Source of the DNA: Patescibacteria group bacterium
GTDB taxonomy: Bacteria > Patescibacteriota > Minisyncoccia > Phycocordibacterales > UBA9973
NCBI GenBank assembly: GCA_038061035.1
Contig: JBBUAC010000023.1
Coordinates: forward strand, 1-37,823
Direction: 5' to 3'
DNA length: 37,823 nt
In this document: piece after piece, positions 1,224-37,020 of the stretch
How positions within the stretch are numbered: position 1 is the stretch's first letter
Layout: each line of letters starts with the position of its first letter
Program-made: the position numbers and the translations under genes
Notes under the pieces: model-generated
What the model was told of the DNA's origin: nothing
The model's input: the letters and a program-made list of their open reading frames with translations, nothing else
Database searches by the model: none

Positions 1224-1246
1224 TTAAAAATGCTATAATCAAGGTA

Positions 1247-2246: not shown

Positions 2247-2275
2247 TTGACTTCAGTCTTGTTTTTCTATAGAAT
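2247..2275 (+). promoter_or_regulatory. Sigma70-type promoter of AAA ATPase paralog 1
   Basis: TTGACT (2247-2252), a 17-nt spacer, TAGAAT (2270-2275), then 9 nt to the GTG at 2285. Confidence 0.6.
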
Positions 2276-2284
2276 AACTGTACT

Positions 2285-3421
2285 GTGTATATAAGAATTA
2301 TTAAAAAATCTATAAAAAACCATTTATTTAAGAAAAAAATCATTATTTTATATGGTCCTAGACAAGTTGGCAAAACAACATTAGTTAAAGAATTACTAGA
2401 AGAATTTAATGGCGAAAAATTATATATTTCCTGCGATATCCCATCAAGAAGAGCTTTAATTATAGGTCCAGAACCAGCAATTTTAAAACAAAATTTTGGA
2501 AATGCAAAATTAGTAATTATAGATGAAGCTCAATTGATAGAAAATATTGGAGTAATTTTAAAGGTTTTTGTTGATACTTATCCAGATATACAAATAATAG
2601 CTACTGGTTCAAGCTCTTTTGATCTAGCAAACAAAATTCGTGAACCATTAACGGGTAGAGCGTTTGAGTATATGCTTTATCCACTATCTTATGAAGAAAT
2701 AGCTTCAAAAAATAACTTTACAAAACAAGACCAAGGGGGTTTTCGTATGAGATTTGGCTGGTACCCTGGTATATCGGAATCTATACAAGATGCTACAGAA
2801 CAGCTTGAAATTTTACAAAACAATACTTTATATAAAGATATATTTACTCTTGAACAAATAAAAAAGCCAAAAGTTCTACAAGATATCGTATTGCAATTAG
2901 CATACCGCATCGGTACTGTTATTAGTGTGCAAAACTTGGCTGATGAAATAAAAACAACTCCAAAAACAGTTGAGAGGTATATAGATTTATTAGAGAAAAT
3001 GTTTGTATTAATTCGTATTTATCCATATTCAAGAAATCCTAGTAATGAAAGAAAAAAGGGTTATAAGGTATATTTTATAGATATAGGTATCCGTAATAGT
3101 ATTATTAAAGACCACAAAGCCCTAAACTTACGCAATGATATAGGTGCACTTTTTGAAAATTATTTTATAATGGAAAGAATAAAATATTTATCAAATAATT
3201 TTATTTTTACTAATAAATATTTCTGGCAAAACTATTTACAAGAAGAAGTAGATTATATAGAAGAAAAAGATGGAATACTCACAGCTTTTGAATGTAAATA
3301 TACAGAAAGGTCTAGTAAATCATTGTATTTATTCCAAAATACTTATAAAGAAAGTGTGGTAAAAATAATTAGTCAAAAAAATTATCAAGATTTTATAAAA
3401 AACAATGATATAATAAGTTGA
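2285..3421 (+). CDS. AAA+ ATPase, AAA_14 + DUF4143 architecture (COG1373-like), paralog 1
   Basis: Walker A LYGPRQVGKTTL, Walker B LVIIDEAQ, ATGSSS motif. It resembles the ORF at 19418-20533 along its full length. GTG start, TGA stop. Confidence 0.8.
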   Translation: MYIRIIKKSIKNHLFKKKIIILYGPRQVGKTTLVKELLEEFNGEKLYISCDIPSRRALIIGPEPAILKQNFGNAKLVIIDEAQLIENIGVILKVFVDTYPDIQIIATGSSSFDLANKIREPLTGRAFEYMLYPLSYEEIASKNNFTKQDQGGFRMRFGWYPGISESIQDATEQLEILQNNTLYKDIFTLEQIKKPKVLQDIVLQLAYRIGTVISVQNLADEIKTTPKTVERYIDLLEKMFVLIRIYPYSRNPSNERKKGYKVYFIDIGIRNSIIKDHKALNLRNDIGALFENYFIMERIKYLSNNFIFTNKYFWQNYLQEEVDYIEEKDGILTAFECKYTERSSKSLYLFQNTYKESVVKIISQKNYQDFIKNNDIIS

Positions 3422-6582: not shown

Positions 6583-6632
6583 AAATAATTTTTAGTGTAT
6601 AATAAATAATAACTTTTATGTCAAAAAGAAAT
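6583..6632 (+). repeat. Resident promoter and start region of gene 6618, partner of the 5261-5354 repeat
   Basis: Extended -10 TGTATAAT at 6596-6603 and ATGTCAAAAAGAAAT at 6618-6632. Both blocks are repeated upstream of the AAA ATPase cassette. Confidence 0.8.
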
Positions 6633-8597: not shown

Positions 8598-9353
8598 TCA
8601 ATAAAAGCAACTGTTTTGATGTTTGTTTTTATATCTATTGTTGTTGTGTTTTTTTTTATTAAAATAAATTTGTTGCCCAATTGTAAACATATTACTAACA
8701 ATCCAATATAATGCAACAGCTCCAGATATACTATAAGCGATAAAAGTAACCACAAAAGGGAATACATATTTCATTTGTACTTGCATACTTTTGGCAAAAC
8801 TTTCTTGGAATGAACCGGGTTTAGATCCGTCTTGTGCGGGAGGTTTTGGCATATAATGTGCTTGAAAAAACTGAGACACGCCAGCCAAAACAGCTAAAAC
8901 TAAACTTTTTTGACTTATATCTATTAATCCCAAGAAAATTGTATTAATTTTCTCTGGTGTTTTAATAAAAGAGTAAAGTAAACTACCATCAAAATTTAAT
9001 CCTTTAAAGAAAACATAATAAAGCGCGAATATAAAAGGAATTTGTATTAAGACCAAAAGACAACCAGAAAAAGGGTTTGTTTTGTGTTTTTTATAAAGCT
9101 CAAAGGTTTGTTTTGCTTGTTCTTCTTTATTTGATCCACCTTTTTTAATCTTATTTAATTCTGGAGCAAGTAAATTCATTTTAGCCTGACTTTTAATAGA
9201 AGCACCTGAGAGGGGAAATAACAACACTTTAACCAAAATAGTGAGAAATATAACAGCAATACCGATATCTCCACCAGGGATAATTGAAACTAAAAAAGCC
9301 AAAGCATTAAGTAGTGGCTCATATAAGAAAGTATTCCAAATATAACTAAACAT
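8598..9353 (-). CDS. yidC: YidC/Oxa1 family membrane protein insertase (short form)
   Basis: Multi-TM 251-aa ORF in rnpA-yidD-yidC-jag synteny. TAGAAT lies 6 nt upstream of the ATG. Confidence 0.85.
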   Translation of the reverse strand: MFSYIWNTFLYEPLLNALAFLVSIIPGGDIGIAVIFLTILVKVLLFPLSGASIKSQAKMNLLAPELNKIKKGGSNKEEQAKQTFELYKKHKTNPFSGCLLVLIQIPFIFALYYVFFKGLNFDGSLLYSFIKTPEKINTIFLGLIDISQKSLVLAVLAGVSQFFQAHYMPKPPAQDGSKPGSFQESFAKSMQVQMKYVFPFVVTFIAYSISGAVALYWIVSNMFTIGQQIYFNKKKHNNNRYKNKHQNSCFY

Positions 9354-9380
9354 TTTCTTATTCTATATGAAAATAGATTC

Positions 9381-10024: not shown

Positions 10025-10156
10025 CACTGAAAGCTTTTTTCTTCCTTTTCTCCTTCTTTTTACAAGTACTTTTTTGCCTGTTTTAGTTCTAGATCTTACT
10101 AAAAAACCATGTGCTCTGGCTCTTTTTCTTTTTTTAGGTTGATATGTTTGTGACAT
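10022..10156 (-). CDS. rpmH: 50S ribosomal protein L34
   Basis: My own translation gives [44 protein letters not shown] (44 aa). It is too short for the ORF track. Confidence 0.95.
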
Positions 10157-10162
10157 ATTTGT

Positions 10163-10190
10163 AGTATACATTATTTGTGTTTTAAGTCAA
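10163..10190 (-). promoter_or_regulatory. rpmH promoter (leaderless geometry)
   Basis: On the minus strand: TTGACT (10185-10190), a 16-nt spacer, TATACT (10163-10168), then 6 nt to the ATG. Confidence 0.65.
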
Positions 10191-10292
10191 AAAATACTAA
10201 ACTATTTTGTGGTATTATTAACAAGTTATCAACAGACTTATTAAGAAAATAAAACTCTCAATAAAAAATTAAGTATGTATAATTAAAAGAAC

Positions 10293-11636
10293 ATGGATAT
10301 AAAACTACTTTGGAAAAAATGTTTGGATGAAATAGAGATAGGTATATCAAAAGCAAATTTTAGTACTTGGTTTAAAAATACATCAATATTAAAAGAGGAG
10401 ATGGGTGTTGTTTATGTTGGTGTACCAAATGAATTTGTTAGAGATTGGCTTAAAAATAAATATCACAAATTAATAACCAAAACAATAGCACTAGAATATG
10501 AAAATATGCGTGCTGTGGAATATATCATAATAAAAATAGAAGAAGTACAAAAAGAAATTGATTTTAAAAAAGAACCTTATATAAATAAAGAATTACCGTT
10601 GAGAGATTTATATATAAACCCAGAAGACAACTTAAACCCTAGATATCGTTTTAATTCTTTTATTGTTGGGTCTTTTAATGAATTAGCTTATGCTGCGTCT
10701 CAGGCTATCATAGAGTCTCCTGGTACTAAATATAACCCATTCTTTGTATATGGAAGCACAGGGCTTGGTAAAACCCATTTAATACAAGCTGTTGGAAACT
10801 CAATAAAAGAAAAATATGAAAATAAAAAAGTTCACTATATTACACTTGAGAAATTTGCTACTGATTTTGTAAATTCTCTACAAAATAATAAGGCAAACTC
10901 TTTTAAAGAAAAATATCGTAAATATGACCTTTTAATAATAGATGATATTCAATTTATTGGTAAAATGGAAAAAATACAAGAAGAACTTTTTCATACATTT
11001 AATACTTTTTATGAAAACAATAAACAAATTATATTTTCTTCTGATAAACACCCCAATTACATACCAGAACTAGCAGATCGTTTAAGGTCTAGGTTTGCTC
11101 AAGGAATGATAGTTGATGTTTCTGAGCCAGAATATGAGTCTCGTCTTGCAATATTAAAAGTAAAACTAAGAGAACATGATATTGAATTAGAAAAAGAAAT
11201 AATAGAATACATAGCCTCTAGTATAAGGGGTAATATAAGAGAATTAGAGGGGAGTTTAAATAGTATTGTTTGCCAATATAAATTAAAAAACAAACCATTA
11301 TCTTTACTTGATGTTAAAAATACATTAAAAAATAACATTAAACCTAAAAAAAGTGTTGCTATAAAAGACGTTGTAAAAATAGTAAGTGATTATTATAACT
11401 TAGAAGAACCTTCTATTTATGAAAAAACAAGAAGAAAAGAGATAGTTAAAGCAAGACAAATGGTAATGTATATATTGAGAGAGGATTTTAATGTATCTTA
11501 TCCATTAATCGGACAAAAATTAGGGGGAAAAGACCACACAACTGTAATACATTCTTATTTAAAAATACAAAGAGATTTAAAAGTTGATTCTCAGTTATTA
11601 CAAGAATTAGAACAGATACGAATTATGTTTAAATAG
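10293..11636 (+). CDS. dnaA: Chromosomal replication initiator protein DnaA
   Basis: Walker A GSTGLGKTHL, Walker B LLIIDDIQF, and the C-terminal DNA-binding helix GGKDHTTVIHS. Confidence 0.97.
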   Translation: MDIKLLWKKCLDEIEIGISKANFSTWFKNTSILKEEMGVVYVGVPNEFVRDWLKNKYHKLITKTIALEYENMRAVEYIIIKIEEVQKEIDFKKEPYINKELPLRDLYINPEDNLNPRYRFNSFIVGSFNELAYAASQAIIESPGTKYNPFFVYGSTGLGKTHLIQAVGNSIKEKYENKKVHYITLEKFATDFVNSLQNNKANSFKEKYRKYDLLIIDDIQFIGKMEKIQEELFHTFNTFYENNKQIIFSSDKHPNYIPELADRLRSRFAQGMIVDVSEPEYESRLAILKVKLREHDIELEKEIIEYIASSIRGNIRELEGSLNSIVCQYKLKNKPLSLLDVKNTLKNNIKPKKSVAIKDVVKIVSDYYNLEEPSIYEKTRRKEIVKARQMVMYILREDFNVSYPLIGQKLGGKDHTTVIHSYLKIQRDLKVDSQLLQELEQIRIMFK

Positions 11637-13257: not shown

Positions 13258-15777
13258 TTAATTAAAAGAAACATTAAAAGTAGAAATAAATTCACTACGA
13301 TTATAAAGAGTATCGTAAGATATTATTTTAATTTCATTAGTGTTTTTTAAATTATCAAGCTCTCCTGGTGTAAAAGAGAAGTTTATTGGATTATTAGATG
13401 TTCCCACAAAAACATCATTTATAAAAATATCTATTTTTGAAAGTGAATACACACCACGACTCTCAATAAGTAATTCTATTTTTTGGTTTACTGGGTAAAT
13501 GTTTTCAATATTTGGTTCAACAATAGAAACAATAGGTTTATTGTAGTCTGTGTGTATATTGTCATAATCATTTGGTTTTTGAGACCATGTGGTGGTATTG
13601 TATCTTCCACTGTTTTGTGCCCACCAATTTTGTATAGGTATATCCCAATGACTAAATTGTGGATCATTCACGCCACCCTCTGGTGTGGGGTCTAATATAT
13701 TTTTTTTATCAACCCAGTATAAAATACTACGTACATTTGTTATTATTTTTTCCTGTCTAGTTTCAAGTGGTGTATTTTCTGTAGCTAATTTTCCTGATAT
13801 TTTGTCTATTATAAAACTTTCATTTCCTTGCCAACTACCTCTAAGAACAGGTTTTATTTTTTGTTTATCAACTTCTAGGTTTGGTTTTTCAAATTTTTCA
13901 TTTGGTAAATTTTTTAAAGCTTCTTTTATAAATTTATTCCAAATAGGACCAGCAACAGAGCCACCACCTTTTTTCATTGGTTTATTGTCATTGTTTCCAG
14001 CCCACACACCGATAGTAATAGATGATGTATATCCTATAGTCCAAGCATCTTTATTGTTATTTGTTGTTCCAGTTTTAACAGCAACATCATAACCAGAAAT
14101 TAATAATTGAGAATTTGCACCAAAAGTAGGAGTTCGGCTTTTATTGTCTGATAATATGTCTGAAATAGTTAATGCTGTATTTTTAGGTAAAATTTCTTTT
14201 TCATTTAAACTAAATTCTTCTAAAATTTTTCCTTCTGAATTTTCAACTTTCAAAATCCCAGTATATTTATTTCTAATACCATTGTTTGCAAAAACACCAT
14301 AAGCTGAAGTCATATCAAGTAAAGTAACTTCACCACCTCCAATAACAAGAGTTAAACCATACCTACTTACATTTGTTAATGTGCTAATACCCATACTCTC
14401 AGATGTTTTAAATGAATCAGAAAGTCCAGATAGATAAAATAATTTTACAGCAGGTATGTTGATTGATTGTGCTAATGCTTCACGAAGTGTCATAGGACCC
14501 CTGTGTTTTCCATCATAATTTTGTGGCATATAACAATTACTTTGACTATATCCAGGAAGTGCCTTTCCATAAGCGTTACAAGTCATTTGAAATTCTGTAG
14601 GCAGGTCAAACAGCACTGTGTCTGGTGTAAAGCCTTTGTTGAAGGCCGTAGCGTAAATAAAAGGCTTAAAAGAGGAGCCTGGTTGCCTTAGTGCTGTGGT
14701 TACATTATAATTTCCATCTATTTCTTTATCAAAATAATCTCTTGAACCTATCATTGTTAAAATCTGTCCTGTTTTTGGGTTTATTGCCACAACTGCAGCA
14801 TTTTTACCATTCATTGTTTTTTCATTTTCTAAAGCACCTTCTTTTGTAATTTTTTCTCCAATTTCTTGTAATGTGTAATCCAATGTTGTTGTTACTTTTA
14901 ACCCTCCTTTTTCAACTGTTTCAGCGCCATATTTTTCCTCAAGATAATCTTTTATAAAAAAAACAAAATGAGGAGCTTTTATTCCCTTAACTTCTTGTGG
15001 TACAAAAGGCACAATTTCATTTTTTGCTAATTCATATTCTTCTTTTGTTATAAAATTAAGTTCTTTCATTCTAAAAAGTATAAAATTCTTTCTTTCTTCT
15101 AATTTATCTATATTTTTTCCATAAGGAGAAAGAAAAGTTGGAGATTGTGGGATTGCCGCTAAATAAGCAGATTCAACTAAAGAAAGATTTTTTGCAGATT
15201 TATTAAAATATGTTTTAGATGCTTCTTCTATTCCATAAACAACACCACCATAAGGAACTTCATTTAAATATAATTCTAGAATTTTTTCTTTAGGTATAGA
15301 ATTGTCTATTTTTATCGCTAAAACCCACTCTTTTACTTTTCTTACTAATGTTTTTTTGGAATTAAGTAATGTATTTTTTACTAATTGTTGTGTAATAGTA
15401 GAACCACCTTGTGTTTTTCCTATACTGAAAAAATTAGATAAAACAGCACGAACTATTGACCTTATTCTTATTCCTTGGTGATTATAAAAATTAGAATCTT
15501 CTACTGCAACTGTTGCGTTTTTAATATTTACCCCCATATCTATAAATGGAATATTTGTTCTTTTTACATCTTGGTGAATATCATAAAGCAATATCTCACC
15601 AGTACGATCATATATTTTAGTAGAATTTACAACCTTTCTATTGTCAAATGAATTAAAATCTGGAATCTTAAAAGAAGAAACCCAAATAACACCTATTCCA
15701 AACACAAGTATAAAAACACTTGCTCCAAATAAAAATATATTTTTGAAAAACCTCATTTTTTTTGTACCTTTTTTCAT
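13258..15777 (-). CDS. Class A penicillin-binding protein (glycosyltransferase GT51 + transpeptidase)
   Basis: GT51 motifs EDSNFYNHQGI and GGSTITQQ. Transpeptidase motifs GSSFKP (SxxK) and KTGTT. I prefer the start at 15777 (MKKGTKKMRFF) because TGGTATAAT lies 7 nt upstream of it. The longest ORF reaches 15813. Confidence 0.85.
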   Translation of the reverse strand: MKKGTKKMRFFKNIFLFGASVFILVFGIGVIWVSSFKIPDFNSFDNRKVVNSTKIYDRTGEILLYDIHQDVKRTNIPFIDMGVNIKNATVAVEDSNFYNHQGIRIRSIVRAVLSNFFSIGKTQGGSTITQQLVKNTLLNSKKTLVRKVKEWVLAIKIDNSIPKEKILELYLNEVPYGGVVYGIEEASKTYFNKSAKNLSLVESAYLAAIPQSPTFLSPYGKNIDKLEERKNFILFRMKELNFITKEEYELAKNEIVPFVPQEVKGIKAPHFVFFIKDYLEEKYGAETVEKGGLKVTTTLDYTLQEIGEKITKEGALENEKTMNGKNAAVVAINPKTGQILTMIGSRDYFDKEIDGNYNVTTALRQPGSSFKPFIYATAFNKGFTPDTVLFDLPTEFQMTCNAYGKALPGYSQSNCYMPQNYDGKHRGPMTLREALAQSINIPAVKLFYLSGLSDSFKTSESMGISTLTNVSRYGLTLVIGGGEVTLLDMTSAYGVFANNGIRNKYTGILKVENSEGKILEEFSLNEKEILPKNTALTISDILSDNKSRTPTFGANSQLLISGYDVAVKTGTTNNNKDAWTIGYTSSITIGVWAGNNDNKPMKKGGGSVAGPIWNKFIKEALKNLPNEKFEKPNLEVDKQKIKPVLRGSWQGNESFIIDKISGKLATENTPLETRQEKIITNVRSILYWVDKKNILDPTPEGGVNDPQFSHWDIPIQNWWAQNSGRYNTTTWSQKPNDYDNIHTDYNKPIVSIVEPNIENIYPVNQKIELLIESRGVYSLSKIDIFINDVFVGTSNNPINFSFTPGELDNLKNTNEIKIISYDTLYNRSEFISTFNVSFN

Positions 15778-15784
15778 ATTTCTT

Positions 15785-15809
15785 ATTATACCAAACATTA
15801 TGTTATAAT
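15785..15809. promoter_or_regulatory. Back-to-back divergent -10 boxes for the PBP gene and tyrS
   Basis: Minus-strand TATAAT at 15785-15790, 7 nt before the ATG at 15777. Plus-strand TGTTATAAT at 15801-15809, 7 nt before the ATG at 15817. Confidence 0.6.
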
Positions 15810-15816
15810 TCATTTT

Positions 15817-16986
15817 ATGAAAGTTGTTATAGATGAGAAAAAAATAGATGAGATTTTAGATATAGGAATAGAAGATATTTTTATTAAAGAAAATTTAAAG
15901 AAAAAACTTCTTTCTGGAAAAATTCTTCGTGTGAAATTTGGTATTGACCCAACTGGTCCTAAAATACATTTAGGGAGAGCAATACCACTTAGAAAATTAC
16001 GACAATTTCAAGACCTAGGGCATAAGGTTATTTTAATTGTTGGTGATTTTACAGCGACCATAGGAGACCCATCAGACAAGCTTGAAAAACGTCCAATGCT
16101 TACAGAAAAAGAAATAAAACAAAATATGAAATATTATACAAAACAACTTGGTATGATTATTGATTTAAAAAAAGCAGAAATTAAATATAATAGTAAATGG
16201 CTTAAAAAATTAAATTTTAAAGAGATAGCTGAATTATCAGAAAGTTTTTCTTTACAACAAATGTCTGCTAGAAGAAATTTTAAAGATAGAATAGAAAAAA
16301 ACGAAGAAATTTCTCTTCGTGAATTTTTATATCCGCTTATGCAAGGATATGATTCTGTCGCCACAAAGTCAGATGTTGAGATTGGGGGTTTTGACCAACT
16401 TTTTAATTTAAAAGCAGGTAGGATTATTCAAAAACATTACAATATGCCAGAACAAGATATTTTGACAGTTAAAATGCTTGAAGGTGTTGACGGAAGAAAA
16501 ATGTCCACTTCTTGGGATAATATTATTACAATCGTTGATGAACCAAAAGATATGTTTGGGAAAATTATGTCTATAAAAGATGAATTAATTTCTAAATATT
16601 TTTTACTTTGTACAGATATAAAAGAAACAGAAATTCCAAAAAGCGAAAATCCTAGAGATGTAAAAATGAAACTTGCTTATGAAATAGTTAAAATTTATCA
16701 CGGAGAAAAAGAAGCCAAAAAAGCAGAAGAGAATTTTGTAAAAACTTTTCAAAAAAAAGAAATTCCAGAAGAAATGATAGAAATTAAAATAAATAAAAAC
16801 GAAACATTGGTGGATGTTTTAATTAAAGAAAAAATTGTTTTTTCAAAAGGGGATTTCAGGAGGTTGATAGAAGAAGGTGCTATTACAGACTTAGATACAA
16901 ATGAGAAATTAAATAACATAAATATTATAACAAAACACGGTATGCATTTAAAAATAGGGAAGAGAAGATTTGTTAAAATAATCTAA
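15817..16986 (+). CDS. tyrS: Tyrosine--tRNA ligase
   Basis: HIGH-type GPKIHLGR, GDFTATIGDPS, GGFDQLFN, KMSTS, and a C-terminal S4-like domain. Confidence 0.9.
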   Translation: MKVVIDEKKIDEILDIGIEDIFIKENLKKKLLSGKILRVKFGIDPTGPKIHLGRAIPLRKLRQFQDLGHKVILIVGDFTATIGDPSDKLEKRPMLTEKEIKQNMKYYTKQLGMIIDLKKAEIKYNSKWLKKLNFKEIAELSESFSLQQMSARRNFKDRIEKNEEISLREFLYPLMQGYDSVATKSDVEIGGFDQLFNLKAGRIIQKHYNMPEQDILTVKMLEGVDGRKMSTSWDNIITIVDEPKDMFGKIMSIKDELISKYFLLCTDIKETEIPKSENPRDVKMKLAYEIVKIYHGEKEAKKAEENFVKTFQKKEIPEEMIEIKINKNETLVDVLIKEKIVFSKGDFRRLIEEGAITDLDTNEKLNNINIITKHGMHLKIGKRRFVKII

Positions 16987-17318: not shown

Positions 17319-17813
17319 TTAATATTTTTTTATATATGCAAAAGCAGTTAATGCTATAGCTATCGCGTCTAGTTCATCATCGTTTTTTTGACTTTCTTGT
17401 TGTTTTTTATCGTAATTTAAATCAACTAATTTTTCTACCATTTTTAATATTTGTTTTTTATCTGCTCTACCATAACCAGTAATCGCTATTTTTATTTGAA
17501 GTGGAGATACTTCAAAAATTTTTAGCTGAGAAGAAATTCCTTCGTATATTATCACACCTCTCACCTCTGCTACACGCATTGCTGTTTTCTGATTTGTATT
17601 TAAAAATAAAGTTTCAATAGCGAGTATTTCTGGTTTGTATTTTTTTATTATATTTTTTATTTCTATGCCAATTAAAAATATTCTTTCTTCAAATTTTAAT
17701 TTAGCCGAAGTTTTAAAACATTCAGAAAAAACAACTTTTTCTTTTCCAGAAGTTTTTTCTAAAATTGCTATACCAAGTCTTTCATAACCTGGATCTATTC
17801 CTAAAATTCTCAT
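17319..17813 (-). CDS. ruvC: Holliday junction resolvase RuvC
   Basis: MRILGIDPGYERLGIAILE with catalytic Asp/Glu pattern. TATAAT lies 7 nt upstream of the ATG. Confidence 0.92.
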   Translation of the reverse strand: MRILGIDPGYERLGIAILEKTSGKEKVVFSECFKTSAKLKFEERIFLIGIEIKNIIKKYKPEILAIETLFLNTNQKTAMRVAEVRGVIIYEGISSQLKIFEVSPLQIKIAITGYGRADKKQILKMVEKLVDLNYDKKQQESQKNDDELDAIAIALTAFAYIKKY

Positions 17814-17833
17814 AATAAGAATTATAAATTAAA

Positions 17834-18426: not shown

Positions 18427-18616
18427 TTTTAGATAAATCTTCCACACCAGTAAGTTCCCAAGAATCCATCTCGTATTTCAAATCGATGCGGTCTTTAATT
18501 CTTTTCATATAATAGAGAACTGAATTGAGTATTAAATCATTTGTTGAAATACCCAAACTGATTGAAACTTGTTTAATTTCTTTTTTAATTTTTTGAGGTA
18601 TAATCAATGTAGTCAT
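18413..18616 (-). CDS. Small ribbon-helix-helix-like protein, overlapping the yebC start by 14 nt
   Basis: N-terminal IIPQKIKKEIKQVSISLGISTNDLILNSVLYYMKRI. TGATACAAT lies 6 nt upstream of the ATG. Confidence 0.45.
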   Translation of the reverse strand: MTTLIIPQKIKKEIKQVSISLGISTNDLILNSVLYYMKRIKDRIDLKYEMDSWELTGVEDLSKNVWS

Positions 18617-18742
18617 ATTTGTATTGTATCATAACGCAATAAAAAATAACAACAAATTCATTTAAGGAATTTATTAACGAATAGTATAATAAAGATAATA
18701 TAGTAATTGTTTATTCTTTTATAAATTTGATATACTTAAAAT

Positions 18743-19417: not shown

Positions 19418-20533
19418 TTAAGTGTTTAATATATCTGTTATGTTTTTTGAAGTTATCAAAGTGACAGGAGTATCTGGATATGCATTTTTCCAGGCACGGG
19501 TTTTGATTGAAGTTTCACTCCACTTACATTCAAAAGCTTCTAATTTTTCATATGTTTCTTCTACTAAATCAATCTCACTGCCATCTTTGGTTCGCCAAAA
19601 ATATGGACGAGTATGGTTACCTGATTTTTGATATTGTTTTATTCTTTCACTTATAAAAAAGTTTTCAAACAAAGACCCCTTATCATGTCTTTTGTCTAAA
19701 GAATTAAAATTATCAAGAAGAGCATTTTTTATTCCAGTATCATAAAAGAATATTTTTTCAAATCTAGTAACTTCATTACGTTTGTTTTTAGAAAGTGGCG
19801 GAAGTCTAAATATTATAAATGCTTGTTCTAATATTTTTATATATTGCATAATTGTTTGTCTGCTAACTTCCAATTTTTGAGCTATCTCATTATACGAAAC
19901 TTGGTTACCTGATTGTAAAGCAAGTAATCTAACTAATTTTTCTAAAATAATTGGCTTTCTAACTGTATCTATTTTTAAAATATCTCTAAAAAGATAATCA
20001 TTTGCAATAATTTTTAAATCAAAAGAGGGGTTTGTTGAAGAGATGATTCCAGGATACATTCCATACAATATTCTTTGTTCTAAAAGTCTCTTAGATTCCA
20101 ATTCACCAACAGTGTTTGAGTATTCTTGATATGAAATTGGATAAAGCATAAATGGTATATTCCTACCAGTTAAAGGTTCTAAAATTTTATTTGCCAACTC
20201 AAAAGAAGAAGAACCTGTAGCTATTATTTTTATTTCTGGATAAGTGTCGTGAAGAAGTTTTAAAGAAAGACCGATATTTTCCACTCTTTGGGCTTCATCA
20301 AGTACTACAAAAGTAGCATTTTTTATAAAAGCTTTCATTGCAGAAGAGGTTTTATTTGAAAAAGCTTCACGAATATCAGGTTCATCACACGAAAGGTAAA
20401 GACCATTGTGTTCTTTGATAATTTCTTTTACAAGTGTTGTTTTGCCAACTTGTCTAGCTCCATAGAGTATGGTAATTCTCGGGTCATTTAAAGATTCAAT
20501 TATTTTATTTTTTAACCATCTTTTTATAAGCAT
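19418..20533 (-). CDS. AAA+ ATPase, AAA_14 + DUF4143 (COG1373-like), paralog 3
   Basis: Walker A LYGARQVGKTTL, Walker B FVVLDEAQ, ATGSSS motif. TATAAT (20541-20546 on the plus strand as ATTATA) lies 7 nt upstream of the ATG. Confidence 0.85.
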   Translation of the reverse strand: MLIKRWLKNKIIESLNDPRITILYGARQVGKTTLVKEIIKEHNGLYLSCDEPDIREAFSNKTSSAMKAFIKNATFVVLDEAQRVENIGLSLKLLHDTYPEIKIIATGSSSFELANKILEPLTGRNIPFMLYPISYQEYSNTVGELESKRLLEQRILYGMYPGIISSTNPSFDLKIIANDYLFRDILKIDTVRKPIILEKLVRLLALQSGNQVSYNEIAQKLEVSRQTIMQYIKILEQAFIIFRLPPLSKNKRNEVTRFEKIFFYDTGIKNALLDNFNSLDKRHDKGSLFENFFISERIKQYQKSGNHTRPYFWRTKDGSEIDLVEETYEKLEAFECKWSETSIKTRAWKNAYPDTPVTLITSKNITDILNT

Positions 20534-20576
20534 ACTTATTATTATATGCCTAAAAAAGCAATTGTAAATCCAATTA

Positions 20577-20960: not shown

Positions 20961-21245
20961 TTATTTTTTCTTTTTATTAATAATAAATTTTTTCGTCATT
21001 TTTCTGCTTGGGATAATTGTTTTCAAAAATATTTTTTCGTCGTCTTCTACAAAAGGAACAATATAAGCGTATTCTCTTATCTCGACAATAAGGACGCTTT
21101 GTGAAGGATATCTTGTCTTGTTTGGATGATCAGATATCTCAATCGTACTACCATTTTGGATTGCTAGGACAACTTCTTCAAATCCTACATTTCGTTCTGC
21201 TTTGAGTTTATCATTTTTTTCAATATTCCAATCAAAATACTTCAT
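20961..21245 (-). CDS. brnT: BrnT family (DUF497/COG2929) toxin
   Basis: YFDWNIEKNDKLKAERNVGFEEVV N-terminal signature. The toxin precedes the antitoxin with a 1-nt gap. TATACT lies 6 nt upstream of the ATG. Confidence 0.7.
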   Translation of the reverse strand: MKYFDWNIEKNDKLKAERNVGFEEVVLAIQNGSTIEISDHPNKTRYPSQSVLIVEIREYAYIVPFVEDDEKIFLKTIIPSRKMTKKFIINKKKK

Positions 21246-21327
21246 ACTTAGAGTATATACAAATGATATTATATGTCAATAACTGCTATAGATAGCAGTA
21301 TCATAGTCTTCTTTATTAAAAAATGTT

Positions 21328-22332
21328 TTAGTTTTCCGGAAGATCAAATCCCAAATGCTCATATGCTTTTTGTGTAGCCATACGTCCACGAGGTGTACGC
21401 TCCAAAAGACCGAGTTGTATTAAATATGGTTCTGTCACTTCTTCTATGGTTGCTTCTTCTTCTGAAGTTGCGGCACTAATTGTTTTTAAACCAACAGGGC
21501 CACCGTTAAATTTTTCAATAAGTATTTCTAAAAATTTTCTGTCTGAAGAATTTAAACCAATTTCATCAATAGCGAGCATAGTAAGTGCTTCTCCTACTGT
21601 TTTTTTGTCTAAATTCTTTTTATGTACTTGTGCAAAATCTCGTACTCTTTTTAAAAAATAATTTGCCATACGAGGAGTAAACCTACTTCTTTTTGCTATT
21701 TCTTCTAGTGCATCTTCTTCTAATTTTGTTTCAAGCAATTTACTTGATCTTTGTATTATTTTTCCAATTTCTTCATTTGAATAAAATTCTAAACGAAAAA
21801 CTCCACCTGAGAATCGCGAACGAAGAGGGGATGAGACCAATGCTACACGAGTCGTCGCAGCTATTAGTGTAAAAGGTGGAAGATCGAGTTGTATTGTTCT
21901 GGCAGAAGGACCTTTTCCTATTATGATATCCAATACACCGGATTCCATTGCTGGATACAATATTTCTTCAACCATTTTATTTAATCTATGAATTTCATCT
22001 ATAAATAAAATATTACCACTTGAGAGATTTGTGAGAATAGATGCGAGGTCACCTACTTTTTCAATAGCAGGTCCTGAAGTTATTTTCATTTGTCTTCCTG
22101 TTTCATTTGCTATAAGGTGCGCTAATGTTGTTTTTCCTAATCCAGGTGGCCCATAAAAAAGTATGTGTTCAGGAATATGCCCACGCTCCTTGGCTGCCAA
22201 AAGAAGTATTTTAACATTGTCTTTTATGTGTTTTTGGCCAACATATTCATCCCATTTAGTAGGACGAAGGGTTTGATCTAAGTAGGTATCACCAACACCA
22301 TTTTGATTTTTTTTGTTTTGTTTACTTGACAT
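21328..22332 (-). CDS. ruvB: Holliday junction branch migration helicase RuvB
   Basis: Walker A GPPGLGKTTLA, Walker B LFIDEIHRL, arginine finger region. Confidence 0.97.
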   Translation of the reverse strand: MSSKQNKKNQNGVGDTYLDQTLRPTKWDEYVGQKHIKDNVKILLLAAKERGHIPEHILFYGPPGLGKTTLAHLIANETGRQMKITSGPAIEKVGDLASILTNLSSGNILFIDEIHRLNKMVEEILYPAMESGVLDIIIGKGPSARTIQLDLPPFTLIAATTRVALVSSPLRSRFSGGVFRLEFYSNEEIGKIIQRSSKLLETKLEEDALEEIAKRSRFTPRMANYFLKRVRDFAQVHKKNLDKKTVGEALTMLAIDEIGLNSSDRKFLEILIEKFNGGPVGLKTISAATSEEEATIEEVTEPYLIQLGLLERTPRGRMATQKAYEHLGFDLPEN

Positions 22333-22366
22333 TGTTTCTAATATATGCTACATTATAAAAGCTATG

Positions 22367-23289: not shown

Positions 23290-24996
23290 TTATTCCTCAA
23301 ATAAATCAACCACGCTTTGTACTTCTTCAAAAGAAGTAATACCGTTTAATATTTTTACCACACCATCTTGTCTCATAGAAAGTATTCCTTGTGTTTTTGC
23401 CACTTTTTTTATTTCACGCTCACTTGGATTTTCTGATATTATTTTTTCAATAGCCTCGTCGGTTTTTATTGCTTCAAAAATTCCAATTCTGCCTTTATAT
23501 CCAGTCATATTACATTTTTCACAACCAATGTGCATAAATAATTTCAAAGAATTTTCCACAGTATTTTTATTTATATTGTATTTTTCAAGATTTTTTCCTT
23601 CTTCTTCCACTCCTTTTATAATTAATTTTATTACATCCATTTCTTTTTCATCTGCTTCTTTTTCTATTTTACAATATACGCAAAGCTTACGTACTAATCT
23701 TTGAGCGATAGACAATGACAATGCTGAGACCATTATTTTAGGATTAATACTAAGGTCTATTAATCGTGGTATAACACCAGCTGCGTTATTTGTGTGTAAT
23801 GTGGAAAAAACCAAGTGCCCAGTCAAAGCTGATTGTATCGCAACTTTTGCTGTTTCAGCGTCACGAATTTCTCCTACCATAATTACATCTGGGTCTTGAC
23901 GCAACGCAGCACGTAATCCATCCAGAAATCCATAATCTCTCCTCGCTTCTGTTTGGGTTTGTGTTATCCCTTCTAAACGATATTCAACAGGGTCTTCAAT
24001 GGTTATGATATTTATATCTGGAGAATATATTTTTTTTAGGAATGCATATAAAGTAGTAGTTTTTCCACTTCCTGTTGGTCCTGTTACTAAAATCAATCCA
24101 TTGGGTTTTGATATTTCTTCTTCTATAATAGAAAAAAGATATGGTTCAATTCCTATACTATTTAATTCTATTTGTATAGATTTTGGGTCCAATATTCTCA
24201 TAACAATAGATTCACCATATGATCCTGGAATAAGGGAAGTACGAATACTTATTTCATCACCACCTTCTGTAATACTAAAACGACCATCTTGAGGTTTTTT
24301 TGATGTTAATTTCATTCCAGAGAGAAGTTTTATTCGTGAATTGAGTAAATTATATGTATCAATATCAAAAGACTCCACATCTTGAAGAATTCCATCTAAT
24401 CTAAGTCGAAGTCTTCCTTTGTCCTTTTCTGGTTCTATGTGCACATCTGATGCATTTATGGCTATAGCTCCGGCCAATATTATTTCAAGTAAACGAGAAA
24501 TCTTATGAGCCTTTTTTTCCTCTAATGCTTTTTTAATAAGTTTTGAAATGTCTTGCATTTGATTTATGTTTTTTGCAGTATCGCGAAGTATTTCGGCTTC
24601 TATGTCGAGTCCTCCGACCTTTGAACTTTCTGCCATGGAAAGTTCTTTATATCTATCCCATACTTTTTCTATACTTCCCATAGATGTCATATAAAAAATA
24701 GGGTCTAAACTTTTTCTTTCCATTTCATCTTTTAATTTAGAAATTAATTCTGGGGTGGGAGAGCGAAGTGCAATATAAATATTTTTACCACTTAATTTAA
24801 AAGGAGCGATTTTCATATTACGCGCATCGTTTTCCGATATAGCTCGAAGTGCTTCATTGTCTATACCTAGATTATATAAATTTACATAAGGAAGATCGTA
24901 TTTTGATTCAGCTAAAAATTTCACCAATTGTTCTTCTTCCAACTTATGCAAATCGTCTAATTGTTTATTTTGTTTTTCTTCATCAAAGTCGGACAT
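23290..24996 (-). CDS. pilB: GspE/PilB family secretion/type IV pilus assembly ATPase
   Basis: Walker A GPTGSGKTTTLY, Asp box, Walker B VIMVGEIRD, His box LVFSTLHTN, and tetracysteine CVYC...CEKC. TATAAT lies 7 nt upstream of the ATG. Confidence 0.9.
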   Translation of the reverse strand: MSDFDEEKQNKQLDDLHKLEEEQLVKFLAESKYDLPYVNLYNLGIDNEALRAISENDARNMKIAPFKLSGKNIYIALRSPTPELISKLKDEMERKSLDPIFYMTSMGSIEKVWDRYKELSMAESSKVGGLDIEAEILRDTAKNINQMQDISKLIKKALEEKKAHKISRLLEIILAGAIAINASDVHIEPEKDKGRLRLRLDGILQDVESFDIDTYNLLNSRIKLLSGMKLTSKKPQDGRFSITEGGDEISIRTSLIPGSYGESIVMRILDPKSIQIELNSIGIEPYLFSIIEEEISKPNGLILVTGPTGSGKTTTLYAFLKKIYSPDINIITIEDPVEYRLEGITQTQTEARRDYGFLDGLRAALRQDPDVIMVGEIRDAETAKVAIQSALTGHLVFSTLHTNNAAGVIPRLIDLSINPKIMVSALSLSIAQRLVRKLCVYCKIEKEADEKEMDVIKLIIKGVEEEGKNLEKYNINKNTVENSLKLFMHIGCEKCNMTGYKGRIGIFEAIKTDEAIEKIISENPSEREIKKVAKTQGILSMRQDGVVKILNGITSFEEVQSVVDLFEE

Positions 24997-25136
24997 AATA
25001 TAGATTATATCTTATTTTATCTTTTTAACCAAAACCAAACAAGCTTGTGTTAGTTGATCTGTTGGTAAAAAAATACTTCTGTTGTTAATTAATTGTAAAC
25101 AACTAGTAGTATGGTTTTTTATGTTAGTATTTAAAA

Positions 25137-25643
25137 ATGGGAAAGATAATGCAAAAAGTTTCAAAAAACACTAAAGACACAGAAAAAATTGCGCAAGATT
25201 TTTTAAAACACCTTATGTCAAAGGGAACCTTTGACACTGCTTGTGTGGTCGGCTTGTCGGGGGATTTAGGAACAGGGAAGACTACATTTACTCAATTTAT
25301 TGCTAAAAATTTAGGAATAAAAACAAAAGTAAAAAGTCCGACATTTGTGATAATGAAGCGGTACACCCTCACCCCAACCCTCTCCCGAAGGGAGAGGGGG
25401 CATAGATACAAAAATCTCTTTCACATCGACGCCTACAGATTAAAAAATGAAAAAGAATTATTACACCTTGGTTGGGAAGAAATTGTTTCAAATCCAGAAA
25501 ATTTAATTTTTATAGAATGGCCAGAAAATATTAAAAAAGCTATGCCAAAAAAATATCACAAAGTATTTATAAAACACTTGCCTCGCCGAAGCGGAACGAA
25601 GGCGGGCACAAAAGAAGGACACAGAAAGTTTAGAATAAAATAA
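25137..25643 (+). CDS. tsaE: tRNA t6A37 biosynthesis ATPase TsaE, with an internal insertion and a C-terminal extension
   Basis: GLSGDLGTGKTTFTQ, SPTF, HIDAYRL motifs. The insert TLTPTLSRRERGHR and the tail LPRRSGTKAGTKEGHRKFRIK coincide with GC-rich hairpins. Confidence 0.85.
   Translation: MGKIMQKVSKNTKDTEKIAQDFLKHLMSKGTFDTACVVGLSGDLGTGKTTFTQFIAKNLGIKTKVKSPTFVIMKRYTLTPTLSRRERGHRYKNLFHIDAYRLKNEKELLHLGWEEIVSNPENLIFIEWPENIKKAMPKKYHKVFIKHLPRRSGTKAGTKEGHRKFRIK
25378..25398. repeat. GC-rich perfect hairpin inside the tsaE coding sequence
   Basis: CCCTCTCCC-GAA-GGGAGAGGG (9-bp stem) within a GC-rich patch at about 25363-25402. Confidence 0.85.
25579..25608. repeat. GC-rich hairpin in the 3' end of tsaE
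   Basis: TGCC(T)CGCC ... GGCGGGCA is 8 bp with one bulge. It shares CGCCGAAG.CGGAAC with 22600-22616. Confidence 0.6.
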
Positions 25644-25741
25644 TATAAACATATTTTTAAATAGCAATAACATACGATCGTATCTTATTGCTAAAATAAG
25701 GTGTAATAATTTTTTATCTAAAAATGCTATAATTTAATAAT

Positions 25742-28180
25742 ATGCAAGAAAAATTAGAAAAACCAAAACTACTAGTTTTACTTGACGCCCACGCAATAAT
25801 CCATCGGGCATATCATGCATTGCCTGACTTTTTATCTTCAAAAGGAGAGCCAACTGGTGCATTATATGGATTGGCGTCTATGTTGATGAAAATTATTACA
25901 GATTTGAAGCCAGATTACATAGTAGCTTGTTATGATTTACCACAAAAAACTTTTCGTCACGAAGCGTATAAAGAATATAAAAAAGGCAGAGCAAAAGCAG
26001 ACGAAGCATTAGTTTTGCAATTAATAAATTCTCGTCAAATTTTTGAAGCATTTGATATACCCATTTATGATGCGTTAGGGTTTGAGGCAGACGATGTATT
26101 AGGAACAATCGTGAAGAAAATGAAAAATAATAAGAGTATAAATATAATCATTGCATCAGGAGATATGGATACAATGCAATTGGTAGATGATAAAAAAGTA
26201 CAAGTATATACATTAAAAAAGGGAATAAATGACACCATTTTATATGATGAAAAAAAAATGATAGAACGATTTGGTTTTAAGCCAGAATTTTTACCAGATT
26301 ATAAAGGACTTCGCGGTGATTCATCAGACAATATCATAGGAATAAAAGGAATAGGAGAGAAAACAGCAACGACCTTGATAATAGAATTTGGAACTATTGA
26401 AGAAATGTATAAACAATTACGAACTAAGAATTACGAATTACGATTTAAAAATATTGGCATATCTCCAAGAATTTTAGAATTACTTAAAAATAACGAAGAA
26501 GAAGCTTTATTTTCAAAAACATTGGCAAAGATACGAACAGATGCACCTGTTGATTTTAAATTACCAGAGAAAACTTTTTGGGAAAATGCAGATTTAAAAA
26601 AAGTTGAAGAAATGTTTGTTAAATTTGAATTTAGAAGCTTATTGACTCGTTTAAAAAATTTTTTTGGAAATAATAATTCGAATTTACAGACATATGTTCT
26701 CCAGAATTCGCATTCTGTCTTGGAAGAGCAAGGTTTTTCTGGTCGTAGCGAAGATTCTTCCGAACATATCTCTGTAAATTCTGCGAAGTTTCAAGAAACG
26801 GCCATTGCGTTGTGGCTTATAAATTCCGAAATTACAAATCCTAAATTAGAAGATATTTTATCTTTTTCTAAAACAAATTCTTTTGAAGAAGCGAAAGAAT
26901 ATATTTTTGAAAAATTAAAAAATGATAAATTAGATAAGGTTTATAAAGAAATAGAATATCCTATTATTCCTATAGTAAAAAATATGGAAGATATTGGGAT
27001 TTTGATAGATAAAAAATATTTTGAAAATTTATCAAAAGAATATCATAAAGAATTGGATAAATTAACTCTCAAAATATATAAAATAGCAGGAACAGAGTTT
27101 AATATAAACTCACCAAAACAATTAGGAGAAGTTTTATTTGAAAAAATGGGAATACGTTCTGGTAAAAAAAGAGGAGCTAGTGGTAATTTATCAACTAAGA
27201 TTTCTGTATTGGAGGAATTAGAAGAAGAAAATCCAATTATTACTGAGATTATAAATTATAGAGAATTGCAGAAATTACTTTCTACTTATATTGATGTAAT
27301 CCCCAAAATGGTTTCTGATGATGGAAGATTGCATGCTAAATTTTTACAAAATGGAACAAGTACTGGCAGGTTTTCTTCACAAGACCCAAATTTACAAAAT
27401 TTGCCGATTAAAAGCGATCTTGGAAAAAGAATTAGATATGGATTTATTGCAAAAAATGGCTATAAACTCGCATCTTTTGATTATAGTCAAATAGAACTTC
27501 GTGTTGCAGCTATGCTCTCGGGAGATAAAAAAATGACACAAATATTTTGTGATAAAAAAGATATTCACTCTGGGGTGGCGTCTTTTGTTTTTAATGTTCC
27601 TCTTGAAAAAATAGACAGTGAAATGCGTCGCTCTGCTAAGGTAATAAACTTTGGCATTATTTATGGTATGGGTGTGTCTTCTTTGCGTAAAAGTCTAGGT
27701 GGTACACGGCCAGAGGCGCAAAAGTTTTATGATAATTATTTTAATCAATTTTCTGGTGTGGCAGATTATTTAAATAATGTAAAAGAATTTGCTACTAAGA
27801 ATTTATATACTGAGACTTTATTTGGCAGAAAAAGATATTTTGCTAATATAAATTCCAGAATTCCATTTTTAAAAAACATGGCAGAGCGTACTGCCACAAA
27901 TGCACCCATACAAGGTACAGCGGCGGATATAATAAAGCTTGCGATTTTATACGCAAATGAAGATCTAAAGAAAGAGAATTTGTTGTCTGATGCAAATCTC
28001 GTATTAGTAATTCATGATGAATTGGTTTATGAAATAAAAGAAGATATATTAGAAAGTGCTGAAAAAATAATTAAAAATGCAATGGAAGGAGTTCTGGAAA
28101 GGTCTTATATACATTACAAAAATGATATTCCCCTTACAGTGTATTCTGGTTCTGGAGATAATTTTGGAGAGGTAAAATAA
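25742..28180 (+). CDS. polA: DNA polymerase I (5' nuclease + polymerase domains; the 3'-5' exonuclease region is vestigial)
   Basis: 5'-nuclease GFEADDVLGT and GIKGIGEKTA. Polymerase motifs DYSQIELR, RRSAKVINFGIIYG, VIHDELV. Confidence 0.95.
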   Translation: MQEKLEKPKLLVLLDAHAIIHRAYHALPDFLSSKGEPTGALYGLASMLMKIITDLKPDYIVACYDLPQKTFRHEAYKEYKKGRAKADEALVLQLINSRQIFEAFDIPIYDALGFEADDVLGTIVKKMKNNKSINIIIASGDMDTMQLVDDKKVQVYTLKKGINDTILYDEKKMIERFGFKPEFLPDYKGLRGDSSDNIIGIKGIGEKTATTLIIEFGTIEEMYKQLRTKNYELRFKNIGISPRILELLKNNEEEALFSKTLAKIRTDAPVDFKLPEKTFWENADLKKVEEMFVKFEFRSLLTRLKNFFGNNNSNLQTYVLQNSHSVLEEQGFSGRSEDSSEHISVNSAKFQETAIALWLINSEITNPKLEDILSFSKTNSFEEAKEYIFEKLKNDKLDKVYKEIEYPIIPIVKNMEDIGILIDKKYFENLSKEYHKELDKLTLKIYKIAGTEFNINSPKQLGEVLFEKMGIRSGKKRGASGNLSTKISVLEELEEENPIITEIINYRELQKLLSTYIDVIPKMVSDDGRLHAKFLQNGTSTGRFSSQDPNLQNLPIKSDLGKRIRYGFIAKNGYKLASFDYSQIELRVAAMLSGDKKMTQIFCDKKDIHSGVASFVFNVPLEKIDSEMRRSAKVINFGIIYGMGVSSLRKSLGGTRPEAQKFYDNYFNQFSGVADYLNNVKEFATKNLYTETLFGRKRYFANINSRIPFLKNMAERTATNAPIQGTAADIIKLAILYANEDLKKENLLSDANLVLVIHDELVYEIKEDILESAEKIIKNAMEGVLERSYIHYKNDIPLTVYSGSGDNFGEVK
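26415..26446 (+). repeat. ATTACGA-heptad repeat half-element inside polA coding sequence
   Basis: AATTACGAACTAAGAATTACGAATTACGATTT. The 15-mer TAAGAATTACGAATT (26425-26439) is identical to 9988-10002. It encodes RTKNYELRF. Confidence 0.7.
26680..26781 (+). repeat. 102-nt palindromic element in frame inside polA
   Basis: GAATTTACAGACATATGTTC (26680-26699) against the reverse complement of 26762-26781 (GAATTTACAGAGATATGTTC) matches 19/20. There is further imperfect inner pairing. The length is 34 codons. Confidence 0.75.
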
Positions 28181-28203
28181 ATACCTTATGGTATAATATA
28201 TAT

Positions 28204-28668
28204 ATGGAAAATGAGATAAATAAAACAAATACTGTGCATCATACATTGGCACATTCATATATTGTTTATTTTTTAATATTAATTATAGGTATTTCTTTGG
28301 ATTTATTTTTTCCTATTAAGATTTTTCACAACTCTTTTGCATTACCTTTTGGTTTCATATTCTTATTACTTGCTACACTTATTGTTCTTTGGGCACAGAA
28401 AAGTTCTAGAGATTTATTAAAAAAAGAAAATGTTACAAAAGAACATTTTTGTCGAGGACCGTATTGCTATACTAGGACACCCACACATTGGGGCTTACTC
28501 TTCCTCGCACTTGGACTCGGTTTTATATTAAACGCCTTTTTTGTAATTGTTTTTAGTTTGTTTTCTTTTATTATTACAAAAATTACCCTTGTGAAAAAGC
28601 AAGAGAAATTTCTTGAAAATAAATACGGCGCTCCATATATGGAATATAAAAAAACAGTGAGATTTTAA
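28204..28668 (+). CDS. Membrane methyltransferase of the ICMT/PEMT-like family
   Basis: Multi-TM protein with GPYCYTRTPTHWGLLFLALG, which resembles the GPY..RHP.Y motif. Confidence 0.65.
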   Translation: MENEINKTNTVHHTLAHSYIVYFLILIIGISLDLFFPIKIFHNSFALPFGFIFLLLATLIVLWAQKSSRDLLKKENVTKEHFCRGPYCYTRTPTHWGLLFLALGLGFILNAFFVIVFSLFSFIITKITLVKKQEKFLENKYGAPYMEYKKTVRF

Positions 28669-30545: not shown

Positions 30546-30550
30546 AGATT

Positions 30551-33436: not shown

Positions 33437-33445
33437 TATATTTAT

Positions 33446-33859: not shown

Positions 33860-33887
33860 GTCATTTTTGTGCTAGAATAGGATTTAT

Positions 33888-36977: not shown

Positions 36978-37020
36978 TATTTTTAGTTGATTAGTTATTT
37001 TTTTAGTATAATATACACAT

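Follow-up and report, generated by a model that had tools for sequence, protein, structure and literature searches.

Promoter -10 boxes abutting start codons and scarce Shine-Dalgarno motifs suggest many leaderless mRNAs in a Patescibacteria genome

The DNA studied here, in the following called the window, is a complete contig of 37,823 nucleotides (37.8 kb, contig C23) from a Patescibacteria group bacterium, and the subject is the arrangement of its promoters relative to its start codons. In this genome -10 boxes abut start codons, so that many mRNAs of genes standing first in their transcription unit probably carry no leader, with transcription starts that we infer from the position of the boxes. 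A first-pass annotation of the window had read its mRNAs as mostly leaderless. This reading fits about 50-65% of the confident transcription-unit-first genes, but it does not extend to all genes, and its start points are deduced ones. Shine-Dalgarno (SD) motifs are nearly absent before the starts of the same genome, and the layout of a -10 box at the start codon goes with loss of the anti-SD sequence of 16S rRNA in the five genomes compared. We treat this layout as a lineage-wide trait and not as a peculiarity of the window.

The assembly to which the window belongs consists of 461 kb in 48 contigs, is 86% complete and has a GC content of about 30%. The nearest public loci of the tyrosyl-tRNA synthetase gene tyrS come from metagenome-assembled genomes labelled Candidatus Nomurabacteria or Paceibacterota, with at most 75% amino-acid identity. 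Genes were called crudely, as simple longest open reading frames (ORFs), giving 461 genes, and statistics for the window are based on 39 starts. An Rfam scan of the window returned one tRNA only, and none of the riboswitch or leader RNA families.

Promoter boxes in front of start codons

The first-pass annotation had placed a TATAAT-like hexamer 6-9 nt upstream of every operon-initial start that it had checked, often with an extended TGn in front of it. To test this, 48 nt of upstream sequence were inspected for all 19 starts listed there. A TAnnnT hexamer was found at exactly the claimed spacer in 19/19 cases (the tally as reported being 13 TATAAT, 3 TAGAAT, 2 TATACT, 1 TACAAT and 1 TATATT; Table 1). 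A canonical TGn precedes it at seven of the 19, namely 1247, 15817, 25742, 28204, 33888, 15777 and 18616. Several of the listed starts (2285, 10156, 21245 and 20533) additionally show a good -35 element at a distance of 16-17 bp. All 19 listed boxes are real, but several first genes have none, and within the window those lacking a box at 6-9 nt are 3482, 9964, 29671, 30057 and 6618. Not every listed start is clearly operon-initial either, as 28204, 30551, 33446 and 33888 follow a gene on the same strand at only 5-28 nt, and their boxes sit within or against that preceding gene. One box-bearing start, 25137, had not been listed. As a whole, about 22/29 transcription-unit-first genes of the window fit the box pattern, and the hexamer is present at 19/39 starts (P = 5e-13), the background for a hexamer in a 4-nt spacer window being about 6.5% per start.

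The genome-wide analysis of start contexts that had been proposed as a check gave a clear result, in that the hexamer-to-ATG spacing is enriched above the AT-rich background, also when gene calls are left aside. An upstream gap of 40 nt or more is present at 270 genes; among these, exact TATAAT stands at spacers 6, 7, 8 and 9 in 19, 9, 6 and 7 genes, and at each of the remaining spacers between 0 and 30 in 0-2 genes. With up to one mismatch, the hexamer was found at 6-9 nt in front of 116/441 starts, compared with about 28 in equally wide control windows (P = 8e-39). A de novo search returned TATAAT as the most enriched 6-mer in the -20..-1 region (17.7% vs 1.7%, P = 2e-34). In the test that makes no use of gene calls, 28/86 genomic TGnTATAAT sites have an ATG 6-9 nt further on that begins an ORF of 60 aa or more; these divide into 16, 5, 5 and 2 at spacers 6, 7, 8 and 9, with 0-2 at other spacers, and the control hexamers TATTAT, AATAAT, TTTAAT and ATTATA gave no spacer peak. 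Of the confident first genes with 250 aa or more, 41-55% have the box at the longest-ORF start. Allowing any ATG within the first 30 codons of the same genes raises this to 50-65%, as against 3-5% for decoy ATGs.

The hexamer is the -10 element of a sigma-70-type promoter, often extended, and not a ribosome site. This follows from three features: the TG in front of it, a TTG at 17-bp spacing, and its thinning out at genes with short upstream gaps. When 150 sites were aligned on the hexamer, the extended -10 positions carried T in 56% and G in 49%, the background for G being about 13%. Further upstream, at -23..-21 from the hexamer, T/T/G reach 52%/56%/34%, which corresponds to a -35 TTG separated from the hexamer by the canonical 17 bp. 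The -35 signal amounts to this TTG only; TTGACA with at most one mismatch was counted 15 times at 16-18 bp, compared with 2-4 times at control spacings. The motif becomes rarer as the upstream gap shrinks: 31-34% of genes with gaps of at least 40 nt carry it, 22% of those with 15-39 nt, 14% of those with 0-14 nt and 7% of overlapping genes. Among the genes that follow a same-strand gene at less than 15 nt, 10-23% have a box. The commonest spacer is 6 nt (71/150 sites), and at this spacer the 7th nucleotide after the hexamer, the usual point of initiation, falls on the A of the ATG. Start codons of box-bearing genes are ATG in 114/119 cases, compared with 255/328 among the other calls, and position -1 is a T in 70% of box-bearing starts.

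At residue level the arrangement can be followed in the divergent pair formed by tyrS and a gene for a class A penicillin-binding protein (PBP). The two -10 boxes had been described as back to back, and they are, with 13 bp between the hexamers (Table 1). Sequence comparison puts the true PBP start at 15777 and not at 15813, the longest-ORF ATG: in tblastn searches, the alignments with relatives extend to residue 1-2 of the 15777 start, which also has its -10 box at 7 nt. The longest ORF of this gene (13258-15813, minus strand) begins 36 nt upstream of 15777 and would overlap the tyrS promoter and start. On the other side, the TyrS N-terminus MKV(I/V)(I/T)DEKKIDE is conserved in relatives from residue 1 onward. 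The divergent PBP/tyrS arrangement itself was found in about 20 relatives, and TGnTAnAAT stands 6-9 nt upstream of tyrS in about a dozen species. In an alignment of 8 species, 7 of them others with a similarly short spacer, TG.TA.AAT, AT.ATA..CA (the minus-strand TGnTAT.AT of the PBP box) and ATG are invariant, and the spacers vary. The two extended -10 boxes would drive PBP and tyrS as a compact 39-bp two-way leaderless promoter. Two polymerase footprints would overlap on this segment, and the two genes therefore probably compete for polymerase occupancy.

Table 1. Promoter elements and genes of the window, in order of position. Spacers run from the hexamer to the start codon.
Element or gene	Spacer (nt)	Start	Positions	Strand	Remark
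TGC-TATAAT	7	ATG 1247	1231..1249	+	
-35 TTGACT, 17 bp, TAGAAT	9	GTG 2285	2247..2287	+	
TAGAAT	6	ATG 9353	9351..9365	-	
-35 TTGACT, 16 bp, TATACT	6	ATG 10156	10154..10190	-	rpmH, 44 aa
TATAAT	9	ATG 10293	10278..10295	+	
Class A penicillin-binding protein gene		15777	13258..15777	-	N-terminus MKKGTKKMRFF...
Extended -10 of the PBP gene, TGG + TATAAT	7	ATG 15777	15785..15793	-	Hexamer 15785-15790
Extended -10 of tyrS, TGT + TATAAT	7	ATG 15817	15801..15809	+	Hexamer 15804-15809
tyrS, tyrosyl-tRNA synthetase, 389 aa		ATG 15817	15817..16986	+	ATG 15817 is the putative transcript 5' end
TATAAT	7	ATG 17813	17811..17826	-	
TGA-TACAAT	6	ATG 18616	18614..18631	-	
-35 TTTACA, 16 bp, TATAAT	7	ATG 20533	20531..20568	-	
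-35 TTGACA, 16 bp, TATACT	6	ATG 21245	21243..21279	-	
TATATT	7	ATG 22332	22330..22345	-	
TATAAT	7	ATG 24996	24994..25009	-	
TGT-TAGTAT	6	ATG 25137	25122..25139	+	
TGC-TATAAT	8	ATG 25742	25725..25744	+	polA
TGG-TATAAT	6	ATG 28204	28189..28206	+	23 nt behind same-strand gene
TATAAT	9	ATG 30551	30536..30553	+	Box inside 3' end of preceding gene (gap 5 nt)
TATAAT	8	ATG 33446	33432..33448	+	Box overlaps stop codon of preceding gene (gap 9 nt)
TGC-TAGAAT	9	ATG 33888	33870..33890	+	Chance AGGA in spacer
TATAAT	8	ATG 37021	37007..37023	+	

Shine-Dalgarno motifs and the 16S rRNA tail

The first-pass annotation had also seen no SD motif before any gene. This stands for 37/39 starts of the window, but GGAG, GAGG or AGGA occurs in -20..-1 at 2/39: an AGGA 5 nt before 33888, which had been overlooked, and one such word 16 nt before 23277. 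Genome-wide, GGAGG was found in 0/393 upstream regions, and SD 4-mers in -16..-5 are rarer at starts than in an upstream control window (Table 2). SD words followed by ATG show no spacer peak, just the 3-base periodicity of coding sequence. The G content is 5-10% in -12..-1. Just upstream of internal starts, A makes up 50-59% and G 2-10%, and internal genes with short gaps mostly have neither a box nor an SD motif.

A look at the 16S rRNA 3' end had been suggested as a further check, and in the relatives the anti-SD is gone, as predicted. It is absent in 9/9 same-order genomes with an assembled 16S 3' end (5 of the same genus and 4 others), whose tails are GGA(W)TAATTC-like in place of GGATCACCTCC. 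The 16S ends in these genomes read ...GCTGCTCGTGGA(T/A)TAATTCAATTTG, or CAATTCC, or TTCTTCC, the usual bacterial one being GGATCACCTCCTTA. An anti-SD displaced behind an insertion was considered and rejected, with no CACCTCCTT-like sequence within 1.5 kb downstream of helix 45. The mature 16S 3' end of the genus would be expected in or after GGAWTAATTCAA, without CCUCC. In other orders of the class, one genome has lost the anti-SD and another has kept it, and CCTCC is kept in 29/30 best-scoring 16S genes from elsewhere in Patescibacteria. The replacement tail GGA(W)TAATTCAATTTGAA is conserved across genera of the order (the relatives' 16S loci L002-L009), which suggests a constraint on the new tail, be it processing or another pairing. 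If SD pairing has been wholly given up in the order, the tail GGAWTAATTCAATTTGAA would have some other role.

On the protein side, uL1 (PF00687) was found in 0/5 genomes, that is, this one (86% complete) and four at 94-100%, the control search being positive in 14/14. bS21 was not found, and it is likewise missing from 8/14 control genomes. A four-domain S1 protein is encoded and IF3 is present, and loss of IF3 or of S1 as an adaptation to leaderless mRNAs was thus rejected.

To compare the layout across lineages, five genomes were run through the same scripts (Table 2); some of them are related, and the comparison is not a statistical test. In G052, which keeps the anti-SD, GGAGG and AGGAG peak at 4-8 nt and there is no -10 peak. 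In G156 the count of TGnTAnnnT at spacer 6 is 31 vs about 1. The 16S tail of G156 (loci L161-L178) is half-degraded (GGATCAATTCC), and the layout is kept at 53% GC compared with about 30% here. Conservation was also seen gene by gene: in G007, a box was found for 32/66 orthologues of box-bearing genes vs 25/113 of the rest (odds ratio 3.3, P = 4e-4), and 25/32 of the shared boxes lie at the equivalent aligned residue.

Table 2. The layout in the five genomes compared. Control-window values follow 'vs'.
Genome	Relation	Anti-SD	Box at 6-9 nt	TGnTAnnnT	SD 4-mers
This genome			26% vs 7%	16% vs 0.5%	1.1% vs 3.4%
G007	Same genus	Lost (16S tail known)	22% vs 6%		4.8% vs 7.4%
G156	Same order, 53% GC		15% vs 0.6%	Peak of 31 at spacer 6	No SD peak
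G139	Same class	Kept	11% vs 7%		6.6% vs 1.9%
G052	Same phylum	Kept	4% vs 8%		12.5% vs 6.9%

Leaderless initiation and its alternatives

In the mechanism that we propose, RNA polymerase would initiate on the A of the start codon, or 1-3 nt before it, and extended TGnTAnnnT boxes would need little or no -35 element. About half to two thirds of the transcription-unit-first genes would then give mRNAs without a 5' leader. The 5'-terminal AUG of these mRNAs would be recognised directly by the ribosome together with initiator tRNA, with no need for SD pairing; such direct recognition is the established route for bacterial leaderless mRNAs. An SD helix could not form because its rRNA partner is gone. 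Internal genes lack SD motifs as well, and in this the lineage goes beyond the classical bacteria rich in leaderless mRNAs. Internal genes must hence start by some SD-independent route, for which the candidates would be re-initiation by ribosomes that have reached the stop codon of the preceding gene, or entry at the junction, which is rich in A, poor in G and unstructured. The motif with its spacing and promoter features, the lack of SD motifs, the loss of the anti-SD in relatives and the conservation are observed; where transcription starts, how ribosomes are recruited and which tail this genome's own 16S rRNA has are inferred.

Several observations weigh against such a mechanism. By the crude ORF-based calls, 35-50% of first genes have no box at 6-9 nt. 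In the case of gene 6618 (window 6583-6632), TGTATAAT lies 14 nt before the ATG, which makes for a short leader. Where the spacer is 8-9 nt, a fixed 7-nt discriminator would leave leaders of 1-3 nt and not of zero. The 16S rRNA of this genome is absent from the assembly, and its tail is taken from 5 same-genus genomes. Finally, generic -35/-10 matches and terminator scans do not rise above shuffles in DNA this rich in AT, and because generic promoter matches behave in this way, single sites carry little weight and the ensemble carries it.

A wider proposition is that the whole Paceibacteria order (the Candidatus Nomurabacteria group) gave up SD pairing, with leaderless initiation as the default and the internal third SD-independent. 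Towards this we lean only slightly. If true, the order would be the free-standing bacterial lineage with the initiation most like that of mitochondria and haloarchaea.

The alternative that survives best, though we consider it improbable, accepts the promoters and moves the start points. Transcription would begin a few to about ten bases upstream, and the resulting very short leaders of most mRNAs would be used through an AU-rich, unstructured 5' end in place of strict 5'-AUG recognition. The common spacers of 8-9 nt (44/150 sites) and exceptions such as 6618, with its box 14 nt upstream, would suit this view, as would the four-domain S1. The A-rich, G-poor composition at internal starts likewise speaks for it, since an unstructured-entry route must exist anyway. 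It fits less well that spacer 6 is modal, also in 16/28 TGnTATAAT cases, and that the canonical +1 then falls on the A of the ATG. Furthermore, a T at -1 followed by an A at +1 agrees with the pyrimidine-purine preference common at transcription starts.

A still smaller chance is given to the hexamer being a non-SD ribosome-binding or enhancer motif on leadered mRNAs, in the style of GeneMarkS-2 group B and with S1 or the altered 16S tail as its possible reader. Such a role would be in keeping with the conservation of the replacement tail across the order and with the hexamers present at a minority of short-gap genes. It could also draw on AATTAA, which is complementary to UUAAUU of the tail and is enriched before internal genes compared with the whole-genome background. 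However, TATAAT is not complementary to the 16S tail, the hexamer is accompanied by TG at the extended -10 position and by TTG at the 17-bp -35 spacing, and it becomes scarce before tightly linked genes. AATTAA and similar words do not peak at any position, and the relative with 53% GC still has TGnTAnnnT as its motif.

A replacement SD matching the new tail was examined in its own right and rejected: AATTAA and TAATTA are enriched, but without a positional peak. No such peak was found for GAATT, TGAAT or AATTAT here, nor for GGAAT, GGAATT or GAATTG in G156 and G139. The enrichment of AATTAA and TAATTA is no more than the composition of AT-rich junctions.

A last alternative would have the pattern arise merely from AT-rich intergenic DNA and a free choice of start codons. 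It might be suggested by the 1114 exact TATAAT sites in 461 kb, by generic promoter matches no better than shuffles and by a chosen start that is not always the longest-ORF one (15813 vs 15777), but it is hardly credible and is refuted by a sharp spacer peak that appears also without gene calls and that control hexamers of matching composition do not give, by the lack of this peak in G139 and G052 at similar AT content and its presence in the 53% GC relative, by boxes conserved across species while spacers vary, and by the P values.

Relation to known systems and further observations

Leaderless initiation from boxes at the start codon resembles several known systems in part. GeneMarkS-2 group C, or TA-led leaderless genes, is known mainly from Actinobacteria and Deinococcus-Thermus (Lomsadze et al. 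2018, PMC6028130; Zheng et al. 2011, PMC3160421). In group C the Pribnow box lies 6-8 nt from first-gene starts, and 25-50% of operons are predicted to be leaderless (PMC6028130). Here the box is localised in a similar way, with about 6-10 nt upstream of first genes expected for such genomes and the peak lying at 6-9 nt, with a putative transcription start at the start codon and a predicted leaderless share of the same order or higher. It also marks first and not internal genes (31-34% vs 7-14%). The difference lies in the remaining genes: those of group C use SD sites (the dual model) and its 16S keeps the anti-SD, whereas here no gene class shows SD. The promoters here are, moreover, AT-rich extended -10 types. 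Neither Patescibacteria nor the class Paceibacteria is named in the text of PMC6028130.

With regard to the ribosome, Tsurumaki et al. 2022 detected an anti-SD in only 48% of Parcubacteria, and the lineages without it overlap the uL1-lacking group (PMC9297842). Their study covers the ribosome side only: SD helices are presumably not formed, and mRNA starts, promoters and leaderless transcripts were not examined (PMC9297842). Because 16S genes of the same genus and order lack CCTCCT and uL1 was not found in the five genomes, the present genus, its tail being judged by relatives, fits the anti-SD-less, uL1-less Parcubacteria subgroup of that work. Outside bacteria, the haloarchaeon Haloferax volcanii (PMC3986360) and mammalian mitochondria (PMC11775629) are alike in that most transcripts lack a leader and initiation does without SD pairing. 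They differ as another domain and an organelle, with other initiation factors and other promoters (the archaeal TATA lying at about -26).

Non-SD initiation of the group B or Bacteroidota type shares with this genome the disuse of SD pairing and an A-rich, G-poor sequence upstream of starts. The single non-SD motif of group B stands before every gene, internal ones included, and is hence no promoter; here the motif has promoter features and is not the same at first and internal genes, thinning out at the latter. Bacteroidota are reported to keep the anti-SD. As to the promoter class, the marks of extended -10 sigma-70 promoters, TG one base upstream and a weak -35, were both found. Bidirectional promoters have reportedly been derived from -10 symmetry by Warman et al. 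2021 (Nat Microbiol), with hexamers that overlap and starts about 18 bp apart. The PBP/tyrS pair resembles these in its divergent transcription from one very short AT-rich spacer. It differs in that its hexamers do not overlap on opposite strands and lie 13 bp apart, the predicted starts, like the start codons, being 40 bp apart.

The mechanism is not new, as the leaderless layout is known and anti-SD loss in Parcubacteria is published; the mRNA-side pattern is the addition. Full-text literature searches returned no paper linking leaderless mRNAs to the candidate phyla radiation (CPR), Patescibacteria or Parcubacteria. Loss of the anti-SD is rare in bacteria, and how such cells start translation was left open by Tsurumaki et al. 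2022 (PMC9297842). The mRNA side can now be supplied: promoters abut starts, operon-internal genes too are without SD motifs, and in the five genomes the trait goes along with anti-SD loss. In practical terms, gene finders relying on SD motifs or longest ORFs are likely to misplace starts in such genomes, as with PBP (15777 vs 15813), and heterologous expression of their genes needs added ribosome-binding sites. The layout is also a natural system in which to study SD-independent initiation of internal cistrons.

At one end of the window, the consecutive same-strand genes 30551, 33446, 33888 and 37021 (30536-37023) each have a box of their own, 8-9 nt before the ATG, and the context gTATAATATA is common to three of the four boxes. 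Judged by these boxes, the four-gene run appears to be built on the same leaderless design as the core genes. That operons are dissolved into single-gene leaderless units is unsupported as a general claim: the genome-wide distribution of same-strand gaps is no different from that of anti-SD-bearing comparators.

Elsewhere in the assembly, two or three genes have AAGGAG or GAGGAG 5-6 nt before the ATG, together with a promoter and a short leader. They lie on contigs C10 (plus strand, ATG at 696 of the strand read), C46 (minus strand, 8505) and C24 (plus strand, 441). These isolated genes may be SD-led despite the anti-SD loss of the lineage.

A last observation concerns the GC-rich word AGCCTA (context ctaggccttaggctctaggcgctag), which occurs at most 20 nt upstream of 11/277 first genes (P about 1e-13). 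Its sites, at about 1203-1227 of the window and in 10 other gene upstream regions, directly abut the -10 box, and the word looks like a dispersed GC-rich hairpin or repeat beside promoters.

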